60,165 bases of DNA, from the sequence record LR025195.1, one strand, 5' to 3'. Numbering within the stretch: position 1 is the first letter of the stretch; each line of letters starts with the position of its first letter. Shown here piece after piece: positions 2,628-57,018 of this stretch. Under the pieces are notes generated by a model. The model made no database searches, was not told where the DNA came from, and saw only the letters and a program-made list of their open reading frames with translations. Position numbers and translations under genes: made by a program. Source of the DNA: Escherichia phage vB_Eco_SLUR76.

Positions 2628-4970
2628 ATGGAACTGTTTCCCGCTGAAATTAAAGCTTTCCCACAATGGGCGGTCGCCGATGCGGACAAAAAGCCGCTGG
2701 TATGGGATAGCGATATTGGACGTTTGATGGCGGCGGACGTTACCGATCCGGATATGCTTATGACGTTTGAAGCTGCCAAAGGTTGCGCCGCTCATTTCAA
2801 TAAACCTTATATTGGATTCGTGCTTACTGCACAAGACCCGTTCACCTGCATCGACCTGGATGTGAAGAACGCAACCAATGAACCTGATCCCAAGAAACAC
2901 ACGACGCCAGAGCAGTTGCGCCGCTTCGAACAGATCATGACTGCGTTCGATACTTACACCGAAGTAAGTCGCTCAGGCCTGGGTGTCCACCTGTGGTTAA
3001 GAGGTAACATCGGTAAAGGTCGTCGACGTGATGGTGTCGAGGTTTATAGTCAGGAGCGTTTTATTATCTGCACGGGCAATCCTGTCTACAACAAACCAGT
3101 TGCAGAACGTGATCATTACCTTACTATGCTTGTGAATGAAATTGATCTTCAGCGCAAGACATATGAAATTGAACTGGTAGAAAAAGATCCGGTAGAAGAT
3201 GATGCAACTATTCATCAGCGCGCACTTGAAGCAGATAACGGCGATAAGTATGCGCGGTTATTCAATGGTGAATGGGTTGAAATGGGTTTCCCTTCCCAGT
3301 CTGAAGCAGATCTTGCCCTTATTTCTATGTATGCATTCTACACGGAAAGTAATGAGCAATGTCGTCGTCTGTTCCGTTATAGCGCACTGGGCAAACGTGA
3401 GAAGGCTAATAAGAACAATGTTCATATTGACCGTTGCTTGCGCATGTGTCGCGGTCGCATGGAGCGTGAGCGCATTGCCCAGGAAAACGTAGCGGCGCTG
3501 GCGCGGGATTATGCTGCCCGTATGCAAGCGGCACACAGTGCAATGCAGCAGGTAGCGGAAATGCCCGTAACTGTTGAAACAACACAGGGGCAGACAGTAG
3601 TTGCAGAAAGTACATCTATTGATGCAACCGCTATTGACTGGCCGCCGGGACTTGCTGGGGAGCTTGCGAAGTACATCTACAAAGCATCCGTCCGACCAGT
3701 GAAAGAAATTTCTATTGTGACAGCACTAGGATTTATGGCTGGTGTATGCGGGAAGGTTTGGCAGATTCCACAATCGGGTCTTAATGGATATTTCGTCCTT
3801 ATTGCTCGTTCTGGTGTTGGTAAAGAAACGTTGAACAGTGGGCTATCTAATATAGTTAGCCAGCTTCAGGAACCGTTTCCGCAGATTCATAGCTTTGTAT
3901 CCTTTGACCGATGCGCTTCCGGCTCCGCACTGCGTAAATCTTTTGCGGACAAACAATCTTTTATCAACTTGAACGGTGAGTTTGGTAAGATTATTAAAGC
4001 AATGGCTACGGCGCCAGCAGGTTCACCGATGCAAAGCTTCAAGAACGACCTTACCGATGTTTATCAAAAGTCCGGTCAGATGTCTATTGTCGGTGGTATG
4101 TCTTATTCTGATAAGGCTAATAATACGGAAGCTCAACAAGGTGTGGCCTATAGCATCATGGGCGAAACGACACCGGATACGTTCTTTGAAGCATTAACCC
4201 GTGAAATGATGGAGGATGGTTTCTTATCCCGTTTCCATGTTGTCCGCTATGAAGGGGATCGACCGCCTTTAAACAAGAACCAGCAGACTACAATGGATCA
4301 GCATTTGCGGGATATGGTGTGTCATCTTGTTAACCACACCTTAGTCGCAATGGCAAAGCATCAAAGTATTGAAGTGCAGTTTAGCCCGGATGCGGAAGCA
4401 TTATGCGATCAGTTTAACGATGAATGTGACCGTAATATTAACGCAACCAAAGACGAAGCGATCCGTCAGCCGTGGAACCGTGCGCACCTGAAGGTGTTAC
4501 GTCTATCCGCCCTGTTAGCTGTGGGAGAAAACTGGATCAATCCGGTTGTGCAGACCTATCATGTTCAATGGGCCTTGGACTTTGTGCGTCATGGACAGGA
4601 TATCATTATGAAGGAATGGCATAGTGGGGGTATTGGTACTAATGACGAAGCTCGTATCCGTACTATGTGCCAGGTTTGTGTCAATTATCTAACTAAAGAT
4701 TGGGTGAAAGTTAAACGTGTAGATCTGCGTAAGGAAGGAATTATCACGAGGGGTGATATTACTACTCGTCTTGCAAGTAAGTCCGCGTTTAAAAACTATC
4801 ACCACGGATTGTCCGCAGCAATTGAGTCTACGATCAAGGAGATGGTTGCTATGGGTGCTCTTGTTCCGGTAACACGGGAGGAGACTATCAAACTGGGATT
4901 CACTGGCGCAGCTTGGCGCATTACGCAAGATGTTGAAGGTATTATAGCAAACTTAGGAGAAGAGGAATAA
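2628..4970 (+). CDS. Primase-polymerase (archaeo-eukaryotic primase fold) with C-terminal P-loop/helicase-like domain
   Basis: AEP motifs CIDLDV (DxD), SGLGVHLW (SGxGxH), ERFIICTG; later P-loop-like ARSGVGKET; 780 aa. Confidence 0.6.
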   Translation: MELFPAEIKAFPQWAVADADKKPLVWDSDIGRLMAADVTDPDMLMTFEAAKGCAAHFNKPYIGFVLTAQDPFTCIDLDVKNATNEPDPKKHTTPEQLRRFEQIMTAFDTYTEVSRSGLGVHLWLRGNIGKGRRRDGVEVYSQERFIICTGNPVYNKPVAERDHYLTMLVNEIDLQRKTYEIELVEKDPVEDDATIHQRALEADNGDKYARLFNGEWVEMGFPSQSEADLALISMYAFYTESNEQCRRLFRYSALGKREKANKNNVHIDRCLRMCRGRMERERIAQENVAALARDYAARMQAAHSAMQQVAEMPVTVETTQGQTVVAESTSIDATAIDWPPGLAGELAKYIYKASVRPVKEISIVTALGFMAGVCGKVWQIPQSGLNGYFVLIARSGVGKETLNSGLSNIVSQLQEPFPQIHSFVSFDRCASGSALRKSFADKQSFINLNGEFGKIIKAMATAPAGSPMQSFKNDLTDVYQKSGQMSIVGGMSYSDKANNTEAQQGVAYSIMGETTPDTFFEALTREMMEDGFLSRFHVVRYEGDRPPLNKNQQTTMDQHLRDMVCHLVNHTLVAMAKHQSIEVQFSPDAEALCDQFNDECDRNINATKDEAIRQPWNRAHLKVLRLSALLAVGENWINPVVQTYHVQWALDFVRHGQDIIMKEWHSGGIGTNDEARIRTMCQVCVNYLTKDWVKVKRVDLRKEGIITRGDITTRLASKSAFKNYHHGLSAAIESTIKEMVAMGALVPVTREETIKLGFTGAAWRITQDVEGIIANLGEEE

Positions 4971-16384: not shown

Positions 16385-16511
16385 TAAGTTCTAACCCTGA
16401 TCAAAAATATTTTTAAAAATGTTTATGTAAGGGGTTGCGTGTCACAAAATCCTTTGGTACATTTAACCCCGTTGGTAACAAACGAACCCATAATAATTCG
16501 GAGTGAAGAAA

Positions 16512-17315
16512 ATGAGTAATATTGAAGATAAGAAAGCCGCTGCTGCCGCAGCCGCTGCTGCCGCTGCAAAATCTGCTAAGACTGCAAAGAAAGAAGCTAC
16601 TGCTAACGACGCAGAAGCTAAAAAAGCCGCTGCCGCTGAAGCTGCACGCGTAGCAAAAGAGAAAAAAGAAGCAGAGAAAAAAGCTGCCGCTGAAAAGAAA
16701 CAAGCTGAAATTCGTATTGAAGCGGAAAATAAATTTACCGCTCTTTCCCAGGCAGTTGAAACCGTGAAGTTTGCTTTATCCGGTATTACCGATGAAAGCA
16801 CTGTTGAACAGATTACGGAAGCAGAATCTAAGGGTTCCGAACAGCTGAAGCATTTAAAGAATGCTCTGAAAGAGCTGAAAGCAGTTGTTAAAAAATCCAA
16901 AGGTGAAGATCTGTCCGGTGCAGTAACTGCTGCTCAGAGCATGGTCGACGAACTGGATTCGTCTATCAAAGGCTTCAAAGACAAGATCCGCGCTGCTAAA
17001 CAGGCTGAAAAGGCTGCTGAAAAAGCCCGCGAAAAAGCTGAACGTGAAAAAGCGAAAGAAGCGAACCGTATGCCTGAACAGAATGGTGTTCGTCGTCCGC
17101 AACCGGAAACTTCCTGCGGTCGTGCCTGGGCTCTGATGGATCAGATTAGCGCTACGCTGGGTCAGCCTGCTCCGATCTCTTATGTTCTGAATCTGGCTGG
17201 TCGCCACGGTCTGAACGAAGATACTGTTAAAACTCAGTATGCGCGTTGGAAGAAGTTTAATGGTGTGACTGGTCGCGTACCTATGCCAGTACCGGAAGCC
17301 CTGAACGGCTTGTAA
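16512..17315 (+). CDS. Lys/Ala/Glu-rich histone-H1-like protein with structured C-terminal domain
   Basis: RBS ggag; the N-terminal 170 aa are low-complexity KAAAEKK repeats. Confidence 0.55.
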   Translation: MSNIEDKKAAAAAAAAAAAKSAKTAKKEATANDAEAKKAAAAEAARVAKEKKEAEKKAAAEKKQAEIRIEAENKFTALSQAVETVKFALSGITDESTVEQITEAESKGSEQLKHLKNALKELKAVVKKSKGEDLSGAVTAAQSMVDELDSSIKGFKDKIRAAKQAEKAAEKAREKAEREKAKEANRMPEQNGVRRPQPETSCGRAWALMDQISATLGQPAPISYVLNLAGRHGLNEDTVKTQYARWKKFNGVTGRVPMPVPEALNGL

Positions 17316-17340
17316 TATCAAAACATATCACGTTATAATG

Positions 17341-17369
17341 AAAGCGCCCAATGAGGCGCTTTCTTTTTC
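17341..17369 (+). terminator. Rho-independent terminator
   Basis: Hairpin aaagcgcc-caatga-ggcgcttt followed by ctttttc. Confidence 0.7.
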
Positions 17370-17384
17370 ACTAGAGGATTTAAG

Positions 17385-18092
17385 ATGAATATTAATCAAC
17401 AAGCTCCCGAGTCCCGTTCTAAAGAAAACGATATGTATTTAGACGTGCATTCGGTATTCTCTACCATTCAGGGTGAAGGTCCATTCTGCGGCCAACCTGC
17501 TGTATTTGTGCGTCTTGCTGGGTGTAATCTGCAATGCCCTGGCTGTGATACCGATTATACTGTTGGTCGTAGTCTTTATCATATTGTCGATATTATGCGT
17601 TTAATCGAAAGCCGTAAGCTGGAATCAGGTAATAGCACCTCACTTGTGGTTATCACTGGGGGTGAACCGTTCCGTCAGCAAATTAACCCGTTTATTGAAC
17701 AACTGTTATCGCGCGGCTATTTGGTGCAAATTGAAACTAATGGGTCTATGCCTTTACCTAAGAACTTTTCCCAGTTACCTATAATTGTATGTAGTCCCAA
17801 GACCTCAAAGATTCATCCTTCTGTGCTGCGCCGCGCTAATGCATTTAAATATGTACTTAAAGCGTGCTGTGTAAACGTGGAAGATGGTTTACCTCTTCAA
17901 GCATTAGATCATCAAGCTACGCCATTTATCGCTAGACCTCCGAAGGGTTTCAAGGGTAAGATATATTTACAGCCAATGGACGAGCAGGATGAAGACCTTA
18001 ACCACAGTAATATCCAAGCCGTTGTCCAAAGCTGTATGAAACACGGTTACACGTTGCAGCTTCAGGTTCACAAATATATCGGAGTGGAATAA
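17385..18092 (+). CDS. queE: 7-carboxy-7-deazaguanine synthase QueE (radical SAM)
   Basis: Radical-SAM cysteine motif CNLQCPGC and QGEGPF; QueE length. Confidence 0.8.
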   Translation: MNINQQAPESRSKENDMYLDVHSVFSTIQGEGPFCGQPAVFVRLAGCNLQCPGCDTDYTVGRSLYHIVDIMRLIESRKLESGNSTSLVVITGGEPFRQQINPFIEQLLSRGYLVQIETNGSMPLPKNFSQLPIIVCSPKTSKIHPSVLRRANAFKYVLKACCVNVEDGLPLQALDHQATPFIARPPKGFKGKIYLQPMDEQDEDLNHSNIQAVVQSCMKHGYTLQLQVHKYIGVE

Positions 18093-18346
18093 TGCGTGTG
18101 CTAAGCCAGGTTGTGCATACTAAAGATGTTAATTTTTGTGGTGTCACTTTAACCGTTCCAAGTCGAGTTGATTATCTGGCATCCGACAAGGATGGGAAGG
18201 TTTGGGGATATGAAGCAATTCCTCCAGAACTTAGCCATCGCTTTGATAGATGGTTGCCCGCAGATCCGGAAGCTTACGAGTACGATGAAATAGCTGATGT
18301 AGATCTTGAAGGCTTAGACTGGACTCAAACATTAACGGAGGTTTAA
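18092..18346 (+). CDS. Hypothetical protein (inside the deazaguanine island)
   Basis: Translationally coupled ORF between queE and queC. Confidence 0.5.
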   Translation: MRVLSQVVHTKDVNFCGVTLTVPSRVDYLASDKDGKVWGYEAIPPELSHRFDRWLPADPEAYEYDEIADVDLEGLDWTQTLTEV

Positions 18347-18559
18347 ATGATCACTTTGGAAGAAGCGAAACAGCATCAGGAAATGATCACTGAACTGGTA
18401 GAAAAACTTAATTCTTCAATTGCCCACGCTACTATGCAGGGCGTGCATGTAGAATTAGATATTAATTACGTTAGCACAATTGGAGCGCGCAATCACCCAA
18501 TTGTAATGTCTAACGTAACAATTAACCCTTGTGATATTAAAGGTGAAGTAAATGAATAA
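18347..18559 (+). CDS. Hypothetical protein (inside the deazaguanine island)
   Basis: Coupled ORF; overlaps the queC start. Confidence 0.5.
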   Translation: MITLEEAKQHQEMITELVEKLNSSIAHATMQGVHVELDINYVSTIGARNHPIVMSNVTINPCDIKGEVNE

Positions 18560-19259
18560 ATTAGATAAACTGGTATTCCCTGTAAAAAATCATAACTCCG
18601 CCGTTGTCGTCCTGTCTGGCGGCCAGGACAGCGTGACCTGTTTGGGTCTTGCACTTAATAACTATGATAAGGTCTACGCTATTGGTTTTGCATACGGTCA
18701 ACGTCATAACATTGAGCTGGCTTGTGCTAATCAAATTTGTAAAGAGCACGATGTCCCGTTTGTTGTCTTTGAATTACCTGCTTTGAAACAAATTGGCAAT
18801 AGCGCTTTAATCGGGAACGAAGGTGATGTTAACGAACATCACGAACAGCACAACAACCTTCCGGCAAGCTTTGTGCCCAACCGTAATGCTCTTTTCCTGA
18901 CTACCGCGCACGCCTACGCGCAGAAGGTTGGCGCGCGATATGTGGTTACGGGCGTCTGTGAAACGGACTATAGCGGTTATCCGGATTGCCGCCAGCAGTT
19001 TGTAGATTTGCTTGAAGCTACGTTAAACGTTGGATATGAAACAGATATCCATTTTGTTACTCCGCTTATGCGTTTAAACAAAGCGGAAACGTTTGAGCTG
19101 GCGGATAAGGTTGGTTTCTTAACCACAGTAATTGAGCAGTCCCATACGTGCTATAATGGCGTCCGTCGTACTCTGCATGACTGGGGATACGGTTGCGGGG
19201 AATGTCCAGCGTGTAAACTTCGTGCTAAAGGGTACAGCGAATTTATTAGCAAAGCTTGA
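18552..19259 (+). CDS. queC: 7-cyano-7-deazaguanine (preQ0) synthase QueC
   Basis: PP-loop SGGQDS and C-terminal zinc-binding cysteines CYNG...CGECPAC. Confidence 0.85.
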   Translation: MNKLDKLVFPVKNHNSAVVVLSGGQDSVTCLGLALNNYDKVYAIGFAYGQRHNIELACANQICKEHDVPFVVFELPALKQIGNSALIGNEGDVNEHHEQHNNLPASFVPNRNALFLTTAHAYAQKVGARYVVTGVCETDYSGYPDCRQQFVDLLEATLNVGYETDIHFVTPLMRLNKAETFELADKVGFLTTVIEQSHTCYNGVRRTLHDWGYGCGECPACKLRAKGYSEFISKA

Positions 19260-19379
19260 TCTTACCGCGAAAACCGCACCGCTAGCACATTGTTTAGGGT
19301 GCGGTAACCCAACTATACTACTAAAGATTTTAAACCCAACAACCAGCGAATAACGCTGTTAAAACTGGAGAACAAAAGT

Positions 19380-19859
19380 ATGAAATTTATCGTTGCTTAT
19401 CTGGCTGCAATTACATTCGTAAACCTGGGCTTTTCCTACCTTCCGATGCTTAATACGCCACTTGGCGTAGTCCCCATGATGGCTTTCTTTGTAGGCATTA
19501 TCTTTGTTCTGCGTGATTACGCACAGCGTAACGCTGGCAAAGGCGTCATCCCTGCAATGATTGTTGGTTGCATCCTTAGCTGGGTGTTCGGTAATCCTGC
19601 GGTTGTAGTTGCATCCGTTGCGTCTTTTGCGCTTAGTGAGTTTGCGGACTATGTAGTATACACGGTCACCAAGAAGCCTTTCCATCAACGAGTATTTATC
19701 AGCTCTTTGGTAGCTGTACCAATTGACTCCATTGTGTTCTTAAGTATTATAGGTATTGTTAATCCGGGATCGATGGTAGCAATGAGCTTAAGTAAGTTCA
19801 CAGCGTCTGCTATCCTTTGGGTTGTTTACGAAGTTCATTCACGTACAGCGAGAGCGTAA
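19380..19859 (+). CDS. Small polytopic membrane protein, YhhQ/DUF165-like queuosine-precursor transporter candidate
   Basis: Four or more predicted TM helices; VLRDYAQRNAGKG and FALSEFADYVVY resemble conserved YhhQ segments; sits within the que cluster. Confidence 0.4.
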   Translation: MKFIVAYLAAITFVNLGFSYLPMLNTPLGVVPMMAFFVGIIFVLRDYAQRNAGKGVIPAMIVGCILSWVFGNPAVVVASVASFALSEFADYVVYTVTKKPFHQRVFISSLVAVPIDSIVFLSIIGIVNPGSMVAMSLSKFTASAILWVVYEVHSRTARA

Positions 19860-19861
19860 AA

Positions 19862-20452
19862 ATGAAAGATAATTTGAATAAAATTTGGCACCAACACGAC
19901 GGTAAAGGAATGCCTATTTTTCTTCGTAATGAGAAGTTTGAAGTTCGTTTGCGCAACGGCACACACGTTAAGAATCTATTACATGGATGGGATTGGGCTA
20001 TGGAAGGGCGTTCAGCTATGGATGAAAATAGCCCTTATAAAGTTCAAGATATTATAGCCTGGCGCTATATCGTTGCGGATGATTACGTCAAACAGGCTAG
20101 CGAAAACACTCGCTCCGGATTGTACAATCAACCTTCTTCTGGAATAAGCATAAGTAATACATTTAATGGTGCGGTTTTTACGAAATACGAACCGTCTAAA
20201 ATTCCCATGAATAAATATCAGAAAGTTATTTATGGTAAAGATCAAAATGGGAATGTTGTAAAATGCATCGTGGACGTGTATGATGTCTTGGAAGCTTGGA
20301 AGACAACTAACCCAGCTTTACAACATTTGATTAAAAAGGCGTTGCAGCCTGGCGAACGCGGTCATAAGCATGTGGTAGAAGATTTGAAAGACATTATTGC
20401 GTCGGCGCAGCGTGCGTTAGAAATTGAACAGTCTAAAGAGGTATTAAAATGA
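19862..20452 (+). CDS. Hypothetical protein (inside the deazaguanine island)
   Basis: 197-aa ORF coupled between the transporter-like gene and queD; no recognisable motif. Confidence 0.55.
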   Translation: MKDNLNKIWHQHDGKGMPIFLRNEKFEVRLRNGTHVKNLLHGWDWAMEGRSAMDENSPYKVQDIIAWRYIVADDYVKQASENTRSGLYNQPSSGISISNTFNGAVFTKYEPSKIPMNKYQKVIYGKDQNGNVVKCIVDVYDVLEAWKTTNPALQHLIKKALQPGERGHKHVVEDLKDIIASAQRALEIEQSKEVLK

Positions 20453-20985
20453 GTTATACAGTAATTCGTTCACATGAAATTTGCGCTGGACATCGTGTTG
20501 TAGGGCATGAAAGCAAGTGTCGTCACCTTCACGGTCACAACTATAAGTTTCACTTTAAGGTTGCGCCGAAAGAAACAGTTAAAGAAGTACCAATTGAAAT
20601 GGGCGGAGGTCTTGTCAACGTCGAAGTAAAAGAGCGCGCTAAGCTGGACCATGTGGGCCGAGTTATCGACTTTAGTGTGGTTAAAACTACGCTCTGCCAG
20701 TGGCTGGAAGATAATTGGGATCATAAGTTCCTGCATTGGAATCGTGATAATTTGATTGACGCTTTGAAAATTGCAGCAAGTCGCCCGAGTTGTCCTCTGG
20801 AACATGAAGACCATGAGCATTTCTTAAGCTCATTGGTAGCTTTACCATTCAACCCAACTGCGGAAAACTTAGCTGCATATATGGTTGACGTGATTGGTCC
20901 GCAACTGCTTGACGAACATGGTGTTCAACTTGTAGAATGCACCATCGAAGAAACTTCGAAATGTCACGTAAACTATAGCCTGTAA
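20449..20985 (+). CDS. queD: 6-carboxy-5,6,7,8-tetrahydropterin synthase QueD
   Basis: QueD/PTPS motifs CAGHR and HGHNY; ATGA start-stop overlap. Confidence 0.85.
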
Positions 20986-20986
20986 T

Positions 20987-21625
20987 ATGACCACATTAAC
21001 AAGGAAACTGCAAACCATGCCAAAATTTACTATTGATAACGAAGGTACTCAATTCCGTATTGCTCGCGCGGTGCATACTTTACTAACTCAGATTGAAGAT
21101 TGCATTGAATTACGTCCAGGATTAGCAGAGACTCCAGACCGTGTCGCTAAAGCTTATGCTACATGGTTTAGCGGTTACGATGTAGATATCGCTGGTCTGT
21201 TTAAAACCTTTGAGGATGGGGCGGAAAACACCAATGAAATGGTCATTGTCCGTGATATCCCTGTATATAGTCATTGTGAGCATCACATGGCTCCTATCAT
21301 CGGTCATGCTGTCGTGGGTTATGTCCCCAATGGGAAGATCGTTGGGCTTAGTAAGCTGTCTCGCGTTGTGGATGCTTTTAGTCGTCGACTGCAAGTTCAG
21401 GAACGTCTTACTAACCAGATTGCAGACGCTATTCAGGAGCATTTAAACCCGAAAGCTGTATGTGTTTATATTGACGCCAAGCATATGTGCATGGAGTCAC
21501 GCGGTGTTAAGCAGGTATGCGGCAGCTCTACTATTACTAAAGCATTCCGTGGGGCTACCGCTAACCGTGGAGATGGAACAATTGGTGCTGTTTGGCGCCG
21601 GGAGTTCCTTGAAGCTTGTAAATAA
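20987..21625 (+). CDS. folE: GTP cyclohydrolase I FolE
   Basis: FolE signature SHCEHH, GLSKLSR and RLQVQERLT. Confidence 0.9.
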
Positions 21626-21696: not shown

Positions 21697-21903
21697 ATGT
21701 CAAGACAATTAATTTTAGAAGCTGCATTCTACAAGCTTAAAGCAGGTACTGCGGATGCTTGCTCTGCAATACAGAATGATGCGCCTACAAATGTCTTAAA
21801 GCAGCAGCTTATTAACGCTAAACATCAAGCGGACGAAGCATTTAATAATGCATGGCGCACCTTAGAACTAATTGATCAGTTTGGAGGACCATTCCAAAAA
21901 TGA
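21697..21903 (+). CDS. Hypothetical protein
   Basis: ATG after RBS gggggaaat; the upstream ATG of the track ORF lies inside the terminator hairpin. Confidence 0.45.
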   Translation: MSRQLILEAAFYKLKAGTADACSAIQNDAPTNVLKQQLINAKHQADEAFNNAWRTLELIDQFGGPFQK

Positions 21904-22820
21904 ACGTTTTTATGGCAGCAGTTTACACAAACGGATATATGCCTGGCCAGCAGCGTTATGAAAAGCTGTCTGAGCATGAGAAAAATATCACGCGCAATCT
22001 GCCCCATATTTTGGAATCATACCACTACGTTGGACGTCAAAAGTATGTTGATCAGATGCGTGCGGACGGGGCTAAAGTGTTTCTCGACTCCGGTGCATTC
22101 TCCGCGCACTCTTTGGGTGCTCACATTGATATTGTCGAATACTGCGAATACATTAAGCGCAACAAAGACATCCTTCGCGTAGAAGATGGCGCAGTAATGG
22201 CGTCAGTGCTCGATGGCATCGGTGATCCGTTGCAAACCTACCGTAACCAGCTTGAAATGGAAGCACGCGGAGCTAAACCGTTACCTTGCTTTCACTTTGG
22301 TGAAGACTTCCGCTATCTTGAATACTACATGAAGAACTACGAATATATCACCATTGGAGGCATGGTAGGGCGTTCCACAGACACGCTTAAAACTTGGCTT
22401 GACCGCATGTGGGACAAATATATTTGCGATGGTAGCGGACGTGCTAAGATTAAGCTTCATGCGTTTGGTATTACGTCAACAACCATTATGGAGCGTTATC
22501 CGTGGTATAGCTGTGACTCATCCTCCTGGATTCAAGCGGCAGCGTTTGGAAGTGTGGTTACCCCTCCGTGGGGACCAATGCGCGTATCAGATAAGTCACC
22601 GGACCGCCATCATTTTGGTAAGCATGTTTCAACATTAACTGAAATTGAACAAGACGCTGTCCTTAAATACCTTGAGCAAAACGGTTTCACTTACGAACGT
22701 TTATCAACAATCTATGAATCACGTGCTGCCTTCAACTTATGGGCGTATGGTGTAATTGCTGCAAACATTAACGCCACCCATGACGGCACATTCCGTGATC
22801 GTGTGATGGAGTTGTTCTGA
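21900..22820 (+). CDS. dpdA: DpdA-like 7-deazaguanine DNA transglycosylase (tRNA-guanine transglycosylase superfamily)
   Basis: TGT-like motif FLDSGAF; located immediately downstream of folE, queD, queC and queE. Confidence 0.6.
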   Translation: MNVFMAAVYTNGYMPGQQRYEKLSEHEKNITRNLPHILESYHYVGRQKYVDQMRADGAKVFLDSGAFSAHSLGAHIDIVEYCEYIKRNKDILRVEDGAVMASVLDGIGDPLQTYRNQLEMEARGAKPLPCFHFGEDFRYLEYYMKNYEYITIGGMVGRSTDTLKTWLDRMWDKYICDGSGRAKIKLHAFGITSTTIMERYPWYSCDSSSWIQAAAFGSVVTPPWGPMRVSDKSPDRHHFGKHVSTLTEIEQDAVLKYLEQNGFTYERLSTIYESRAAFNLWAYGVIAANINATHDGTFRDRVMELF

Positions 22821-56504: not shown

Positions 56505-56719
56505 CTGTTACGGTCATTGCATTTATATTCATACTCAGTAATAACCTGAGGATACATTGACATAACATTACCTTTTGCATCGTAAATATATTGCCAAATG
56601 ATATCCTCACGGCTGTTACCAGTGCGTTGGCAGTTTTGCCGCTCCATTTCTTTAGAGTCTACAATTGCAAATACAACGAAAGCGGCAACTATAACGCCTA
56701 GTATCATGAATATTTTCAT
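56495..56719 (-). CDS. Small membrane protein
   Basis: N-terminal TM helix. Confidence 0.5.
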   Translation of the reverse strand: MKIFMILGVIVAAFVVFAIVDSKEMERQNCQRTGNSREDIIWQYIYDAKGNVMSMYPQVITEYEYKCNDRNRWR

Positions 56720-57018
56720 GGGTTAAGCCTATATTCTTTGATTTCCCTTAGCGTATCGCGCCAGTCCAAACCTTCAAGGTCAACTTCACCGCAGTAGCGC
56801 ACATGCAAACCGTATACGCCAAGCATCCATTGCTTACCAGATTCATAGCAAGAAGGTTTGGCGTCATAACAATGAACTTTACCGTCTGCATCTACAGCGA
56901 TAAAGTTAGCCCAGGGCTCAACAGGGACAGCAGACCCGTAATAGTCTGTAAATACTCGCGTCTCCTTGTTAACAGAAGGGATCGCGTGTCCAGTTTCGTC
57001 CATTCCTAAATACAGCAT
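56716..57018 (-). CDS. Hypothetical protein
   Basis: Coupled ORF. Confidence 0.5.
   Translation of the reverse strand: MLYLGMDETGHAIPSVNKETRVFTDYYGSAVPVEPWANFIAVDADGKVHCYDAKPSCYESGKQWMLGVYGLHVRYCGEVDLEGLDWRDTLREIKEYRLNP

Follow-up and report, generated by a model that had tools for sequence, protein, structure and literature searches.

Two small open reading frames, ORF1 and ORF2, lie packed between queE and queC, two core enzymes of a phage 7-deazaguanine pathway, and the locus raises the question of whether they belong to that pathway or only travel with it. An earlier sequence-only reading had proposed that their placement, if conserved, would speak for accessory roles in the modification pathway such as a carrier or specificity factor. 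Within the window, i.e., the whole 60,165-nt stretch of DNA analyzed here, the queE–queC stretch is 100% identical to Escherichia phage vB_Eco_SLUR26 (LR025198.1, 60165 bp; Queuovirinae, Seuratvirus), whose record coordinates equal window coordinates + 2; the window is this genome in full. The surrounding genes form the known Seuratvirus 7-deazaguanine cluster, in the order queE, ORF1, ORF2, queC, a transporter, one gene of no known function, queD, folE, a small ORF, and dpdA. The features used below are the following:

17310-17339: promoter-like site, overlapping the 17340..17363 hairpin
17340..17363, + strand: terminator-like hairpin with a T-run (9-pair stem, 6 GC pairs)
17385..18092, + strand: queE, 7-carboxy-7-deazaguanine synthase, radical SAM, 235 aa (Pfam Radical_SAM and Fer4_12)
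18092..18346, + strand: ORF1, 84 aa (phrog_1972), in the slot directly after queE
18347..18559, + strand: ORF2, 70 aa (phrog_26258), the constant gene of the queE–queC interval in Seuratvirus-like phages
18523..18560, + strand: ORF2/queC junction (approximate span, from the 18512-18592 stretch)
18552..19259, + strand: queC, 7-cyano-7-deazaguanine synthase, 235 aa (Pfam QueC, 9.2e-75)
19380-19859: YhhQ/Vut_1-type transporter
20449-20985: queD/PTPS
20987-21625: folE
21900-22820, + strand: dpdA, annotated as queuosine tRNA-ribosyltransferase
56716..57018, - strand: ORF1 paralogue, 100 aa, distant from the que cluster and within a small-ORF array

Both ORFs are genuine protein-coding genes under purifying selection. 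Their length alone is uninformative, as ORFs this long often arise by chance in the window and its ORF listing includes many spurious ones; the case is made instead by Shine-Dalgarno sites, CDS annotation, homologues, and dN/dS ratios. Specifically, a GGAG/GGAGG motif lies 5–8 nt upstream of both starts, both ORFs are annotated as CDS (“hypothetical protein”) in GenBank LR025198.1, homologues of both reach down to 34–50% identity, and pairwise Nei-Gojobori comparisons to relatives yielded dN/dS ratios of 0.085–0.285 for ORF1 and 0.073–0.194 for ORF2, with 0.009–0.16 for the flanking enzymes. The ORF listing bears out the coordinates of the sequence-only reading for the two ORFs (84 and 70 aa), while matches of the queE product to Radical_SAM and to phrog_2076 (QueE-like, 1.3e-68), together with the Pfam QueC match, bear out its naming of the two neighbors. 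The gene ends are interlocked: the ORF1 ATG has one base in common with the queE stop (TAATG), the ORF2 ATG is immediately 3′ of the ORF1 TAA, and the queC ATG at 18552 is overlapped by the last 8 nt of ORF2, an overlap already seen in the sequence-only reading. Upstream, the 17340..17363 hairpin marks the boundary of the queE–ORF1–ORF2–queC unit, and a terminator is annotated at the matching place upstream of queE in phages Seurat and SA80RD. Given these start/stop overlaps, Shine-Dalgarno sites, and upstream terminator and promoter signals, the four genes form one tightly coupled unit. An Rfam scan of 17000-19600 returned no family at threshold, with only sub-threshold noise at the terminator. 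ORF1 and ORF2 show no relationship to each other; Pfam, NCBIfam, and PADLOC scans of ORF1, ORF2, and the alternative cassettes described below gave no match, nor did profile searches of the ORF1 and ORF2 families against PDB sequences.

Next, we evaluated the content of the queE–queC interval across relatives. The interval was read in twelve genomes, and ~31 distinct Seuratvirus-type phages match the region; counts for the genomes beyond those fetched derive from tblastn tables and interval lengths and are approximate. Overall, the interval is a mosaic of three slots: a variable slot A directly after queE, slot B, i.e., ORF2, and slot C, a 62-aa ORF before queC. Among the ~31 phages, slot A holds ORF1 (≥96% identity) in ~11 and a 48–49% identical allele of the ORF1 family (82–99 aa; Greed, SLUR25/63, CSP1, STP-SP5, and others) in ~9, with ~11 having neither. 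The slot is taken by an unrelated ORF in SA80RD (53 aa) and by another in SD04 (86 aa), and it is empty in CAjan, SHIN8, KurtStettler, yong3, and three metagenomic Seuratvirus-like contigs; for CAjan, SHIN8, and KurtStettler, we read directly that queE abuts ORF2. Slot C is present in most E. coli Seuratviruses (e.g., L002, 1668-1856; L006, 1413-1601) and missing from SLUR26 (at ~18552 in the window), SLUR75, KS_A3, KS_S4, STP-SP5, and the divergent lineages. Its 62-aa product is a diverged tandem paralogue of ORF2 (BLASTP 2e-4; hhalign probability 91%, E 1e-6, 33 columns). Slot B was occupied in every Seuratvirus-like genome examined. The conserved placement that had suggested accessory roles therefore holds for ORF2 and fails for ORF1, which is absent from the near-identical islands of CAjan, SHIN8, and KurtStettler and replaced in those of SA80RD and SD04.

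The junctions between slots suggest how this mosaic arises. With slot A empty, queE ends in ...GGTGGAATAATG, which is joined straight to ATGATCACT of ORF2, and the slot-A cargo of SD04 ends in a second copy of GAGGTGGAATAATG. Cassette C is flanked by repeats TTAAAGGTnnnnn(n)A(A/G)ATGAAT in Seurat, CAjan, and KurtStettler. The direct repeats bounding C are roughly 20 nt long and made of Shine-Dalgarno, stop, and start signals. Compared with C-carrying relatives, the ORF2|queC junction of the window consists of the left half of their B|C junction and the right half of their C|queC junction, and 18523..18560 is the site where the 62-aa cassette is missing. From these repeated junction signals, we conclude that cassettes are gained and lost cleanly at Shine-Dalgarno–stop–start repeats, with translational coupling kept intact. 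In addition, dS between SLUR26 and Seurat (L002) amounts to 0.054, 0.18, 0.31, and 0.20 for the four adjacent genes of 17385-19259, several-fold differences that are consistent with recombination within the queE–queC unit.

A further reading takes ORF2 mainly for a translated spacer, which would bring ribosomes to the queC start by translational coupling rather than act through its protein product. The queC start and its Shine-Dalgarno sequence do lie inside the 3′ end of ORF2 or C in all genomes examined, with gaps or overlaps of 0–8 nt. However, purifying selection acts on the ORF2 amino acid sequence (dN/dS 0.07–0.19), its fold is confidently predicted (pLDDT 88), and its protein family is conserved across unrelated operons, so that we regard a pure spacer as very improbable.

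CAjan lacks ORF1 and yet has ~32% of its G replaced by dPreQ0 (PMC6884629), and ORF1 is therefore unneeded for dPreQ0 synthesis or insertion; the synteny comparison thus runs counter to the accessory role proposed for this gene by the sequence-only reading. ORF1 is an acidic protein (pI 4.3, net charge about −10) predicted to be all-beta, and belongs to phrog_1972 (HMM E 2.8e-22, residues 2–83 vs profile positions 22–103 of 160), a family that carries no assigned function. G17, D32, G35, P45, and W54, as well as VDLEGxDW motifs, are conserved in distant members. By tblastn, the family was found in 61 phage records: next to queE in Seuratvirus and in Nonagvirus (ChristophMerian, 54%), in the jumbo phages CBB, GAP32, and BF and in Erwinia phages, and also in Klebsiella siphoviruses (~48 kb), Carvajevirus, and Nonanavirus. 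At 19 of the 20 IMG/VR loci recovered with the ORF1-family motif, there was no que gene within 3 kb. Second family copies occur elsewhere in Seuratvirus genomes: in the window, the paralogue at 56716-57018 is 32% identical to ORF1 over 71 aa, with F/Y-x-A-x-D-x-D-G and VDLEGLDW common to both, while SHIN8 has no ORF1 in its que cluster and two copies within an array of tiny ORFs. Taken together, the fully modified CAjan, SA80RD, SD04, the IMG/VR loci, jumbo phages, Klebsiella siphoviruses, and Nonanavirus AVIO78A show ORF1 to be neither consistently co-occurring with nor required by the 7-deazaguanine pathway, as a dedicated component would be. Instead, phrog_1972 is a mobile family of small, beta-rich proteins that is widespread among phages, with members mostly encoded in arrays of tiny early-type genes.

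Two further features of this family were observed. Close relatives of the SHIN8 type carry two ORF1 paralogues at the region matching window 56716-57018. The members from Klebsiella phage Carvaje and from AVIO78A have an N-terminal Cys-rich extension of ~30 aa (L016, 2402-2737; L017, 9520-9855); this extension matches zinc-ribbon Pfam models (best E 2e-4), and a Pfam scan of 11 diverse family members identified only such an extension, in two of them.

ORF2 follows a different pattern. The order queE-(A)-B-(C)-queC is found in all E. coli Seuratvirus members, STP-SP5 encodes an ORF2 of 67% identity between queE and queC, and B is the sole gene of the interval in four divergent lineages, i.e., yong3 (44%), L011 (58%), L046 (62%), and L047 (52%). 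Because these four lineages have only B, ORF2 alone looks like the ancestral state of the interval. The placement of ORF2 stays constant while QueE diverges to 66%, ORF2 to 44%, and both neighboring slots vary. Vertical inheritance of a small accessory gene may account for this persistence, which would also be expected from a lineage-specific functional link to QueE or QueC.

Such a link would make ORF2, along with C where present, a Seuratvirus-specific accessory of the preQ0 branch, with ORF1 as unrelated cargo. Specifically, ORF2 could be a small oligomer that bridges or stabilizes QueE and QueC, e.g., handing over CDG, or alternatively could adjust the phage enzymes with respect to their Que counterparts in the host. 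Such a role would fit the invariant position with start/stop overlap of a gene that is the only one of the interval in the four divergent lineages, and the purifying selection on ORF2, which is comparable to that on the enzymes. ORF2 also accompanies QueC in its stand-alone form and is missing from the sister genus Nonagvirus, which makes dG+ using a Gat-QueC fusion. In ChristophMerian of this genus, the interval has no ORF2; it contains a homologue of ORF1, an ORF of 33 aa, and the gene of a 252-aa protein.

Set against this link, ORF2 homologues exist in phages without any que or dpdA genes. Nonanavirus AVIO78A carries both an ORF1-like and an ORF2-like gene, and a search of its whole genome revealed no QueE, QueC, QueD, FolE, DpdA, or YhhQ. 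Further ORF2-like genes (L012, L044, L048) sit in small-ORF arrays or other contexts without que genes, and those of the Nonanavirus-type loci L021–L023 likewise have a non-que context. These homologues from que-less phages are 33–45% identical to ORF2, and judging from this divergence may serve another role. For ORF2, an exhaustive HMMER search against 1.84 billion representatives recovered only three 50%-identity clusters, which argues, as far as the search alone can tell, against its presence in other dPreQ0 phages. ORF2 is also without any cofactor or ligand motif, and has no similarity to Gat-QueC or to any Que protein. Bacterial QueE and QueC work without an ORF2-like partner, as established in preQ0 biochemistry. 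The same is true of phage QueE and QueC (PMC6884629): in phage 9g, QueE, QueD, and FolE each complement the corresponding E. coli mutants alone, and DpdA with Gat-QueC alone led to 9–18% modification of plasmid G, so that the pathway enzymes act without partners of the ORF1 or ORF2 kind (PMC6884629). Overall, we consider a QueE/QueC accessory unlikely, although it is the main rival to the reading favored below; if true, it would extend the phage 7-deazaguanine pathway only modestly. The more specific proposal of a carrier or specificity factor found no positive support, the ORF2 family being narrow, absent from Nonagvirus, present in que-less AVIO78A, and devoid of a cofactor motif.

The sequence and predicted fold of ORF2 are likewise those of a small non-enzymatic protein. 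ORF2 is acidic (pI 5.0) and spans the full phrog_26258 profile (HMM E 2.4e-50, residues 1–70 vs 1–70 of 70). Word-indexed searches gave close relatives only, until a profile was used: the profile search retrieved 57 proteins in three groups, i.e., Seuratvirus-type proteins, intermediates with 45–62% identity, and Nonanavirus-type proteins with 33–37%. The predicted model comprises a helix (residues 4–30) followed by a beta-hairpin (33–45, 48–59) at pLDDT 88, a simple and confident fold with no enzyme-like match; a BFVD fold search with this model returned nothing at E ≤ 0.001. No Cys, His, or cofactor motif is conserved, and the single Cys (C62) is replaced by T, Q, E, or R in homologues.

These features bear on a propagated database label. 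Radical SAM superfamily proteins bind a 4Fe-4S cluster through a CX3CX2C (or variant) triad and have a SAM-binding partial TIM barrel of ~200 aa or more. The label “radical SAM domain-containing protein” given to ORF2 homologues is wrong, because ORF2 has 70 aa, one non-conserved Cys, a helix-hairpin fold, and no match to Radical_SAM in Pfam at E up to 0.1. The label goes back to CAjan AJT60529, from which it spread at least as far as Dru_SM1, KS_A3, SHIN8, and phrog_26258.

Several other identities for ORF2 were tried. A derivation of ORF2, as a remnant, from the Gat domain of the Nonagvirus fusion protein (hhalign probability 4%) or from the Nonagvirus 252-aa protein (hhalign probability 1%) was rejected. 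At four Nonanavirus-type loci (L010, L021, L022, L023; ~3001-4110), the last 4 nt of the ORF2-like gene always coincide with the start of a 304-aa RdgC-like gene; a link between ORF2 and RdgC was rejected, since this arrangement is confined to a single lineage and no RdgC homologue is encoded in the window. E. coli GnsA (PDB 4xo2) is 14% identical to ORF2. The ORF2-family profile retrieved no GnsA chain at E up to 10 from all PDB sequences, 4xo2 included, and a Pfam scan gave no GnsA/GnsB family match; hhalign against GnsA was also negative, although its GnsA query sequence was approximate, which makes the PDB profile search the valid test. We do not claim GnsA/GnsB membership for ORF2, since the fold is simple enough for convergence.

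The turnover in slot A may point to another function for these genes. The interval could be a counter-defence hot spot within an anti-restriction operon; ORF1, the other cargos of its slot, and perhaps ORF2 would then inhibit host defence or nucleic-acid enzymes of the host, with cargos swapped between phages according to host range. Among phages with flanks that are >95% identical, slot A is either empty or filled by one of at least four cargos that are unrelated or divergent, a pattern that fits this view, and the neighboring genes are themselves an anti-restriction system (PMC6884629). ORF1-family genes are also found in tiny early-type ORF arrays in many phage lineages, and ORF1 and ORF2 are both small and acidic (ORF1 about −10 over 84 aa), although acidity alone is weak evidence. 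However, there is no sequence or fold match to a known anti-defence protein or DNA mimic, the PADLOC models covering defence rather than anti-defence proteins, and we judge the hot-spot interpretation to be somewhat less probable still than a QueE/QueC accessory. The two may also be combined: ORF2 and C would be a small, Seuratvirus-specific oligomeric adaptor physically coupling QueE to QueC (or to DpdA) and directing the preQ0 precursor to DNA rather than to host tRNA, next to a slot for swappable counter-defence cargo. This composite, more doubtful again than either of its parts, would turn the interval into a compact anti-restriction island combining chemistry and inhibitors.

We thus favor, with a probability of roughly 0.6, a reading in which ORF1 and ORF2 encode small binding proteins that are expressed together with the modification genes and stay outside the 7-deazaguanine chemistry; most likely, they are ordinary small accessory genes of the phage and not components of the pathway. 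Under this reading, two unrelated, small, acidic, and presumably non-enzymatic proteins would ride in the queE–queC transcription and translation unit, each gene bringing its own Shine-Dalgarno, stop, and start signal, and for that reason able to be inserted or lost without breaking the translational coupling from queE to queC. ORF1 would be one of several interchangeable occupants of slot A, alongside unrelated cargo or nothing, while ORF2 would be inherited vertically at its place in Seuratvirus-like phages, with a tandem duplication in most of them. ORF2 is probably an oligomer. Both proteins may bind other proteins in host takeover or counter-defence type functions, and each would be dispensable for dPreQ0 synthesis and insertion.

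The published record on this cluster can be placed beside this reading. Kot et al. (2020, PMC7544227) described a 12-gene 7-deazaguanine cluster in CAjan in which 6 of the 12 genes are of unknown function, drawn as white boxes, and the published CAjan deletions cover only folE, queC, dpdA, and yhhQ; none of the small cluster genes is among those deleted. In CAjan, the orthologue of ORF2 (AJT60529 / YP_009196838) is 93% identical and in the same place between queE and queC; CAjan has C and no ORF1, whereas SLUR26 has ORF1 and no C. Hypothetical genes inserted between que genes have been noted before (PMC10484667), and Cui et al. (2023, PMC10516641) set aside short lineage-restricted ORFs of phage deazaguanine clusters as pathway candidates because they are short, absent from other phages with the pathway, and without a recognizable domain. 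Another taxon-restricted small phage protein, Ksap1, is conserved in one genus and yet deletable (PMC11564622). The points of resemblance are a length of ~60–75 aa, a location amid functional genes, absence from other phages with the pathway, and the lack of a recognizable domain; this is an analogy of kind only, as neither the ORFs of Cui et al. nor Ksap1 have any sequence relationship to ORF1 or ORF2. Ksap1 was also rejected as an identity for either ORF, being an unrelated Dhillonvirus protein (from the Avs2 paper). A literature search by locus tags and PHROG id retrieved no paper.

GenBank, PHROGs, and PMC7544227 already record ORF1 and ORF2, the families to which they belong, and their place among the cluster genes of unknown function. 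This analysis adds the three-slot description, the paralogy of B and C, the junctions bounded by repeats, the finding that a que-less phage has both families, and the correction of the radical-SAM label. Nothing in these results would surprise a phage genomicist, and they have little consequence for the pathway itself; mainly, they guard against over-reading ORF1 and ORF2 as pathway factors. They also correct a propagated misannotation of a 70-aa helix-hairpin protein, and document small-gene exchange in a translationally coupled operon via repeated Shine-Dalgarno–stop–start junctions. Slot A is a reasonable place to seek counter-defence genes in Queuovirinae.

Three other genes of the region drew our attention. 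Directly 5′ of queE, window 16503-17315 (+ strand) encodes a low-complexity protein of 270 aa that is rich in Ala, Lys, and Glu and contains a run of 11 alanines, and for which no family match was found above curated cut-offs; its relatives are named “plectin 1”, “FtrA domain-containing”, or hypothetical. Between yhhQ and queD, the gene at window 19864-20452 (+ strand) has a C-terminal domain of ~80 aa (phrog_23361/2452) in common with the Nonagvirus ChristophMerian 252-aa protein (49% identity, E 6e-18; L009, 4370-5128, in the queE/gat-queC interval). This domain is found in both Seuratvirus and Nonagvirus, like the ORF1 family; unlike for ORF1, no variation was noticed in the genomes read, and the gene may be a better candidate than ORF1 for a cluster-associated role. 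Finally, the DpdA homologue (21900-22820) gave no Pfam match at E up to 0.1, and is 89–95% conserved across divergent Seuratvirus-like phages, far above QueE, QueC, and QueD in the same comparisons.
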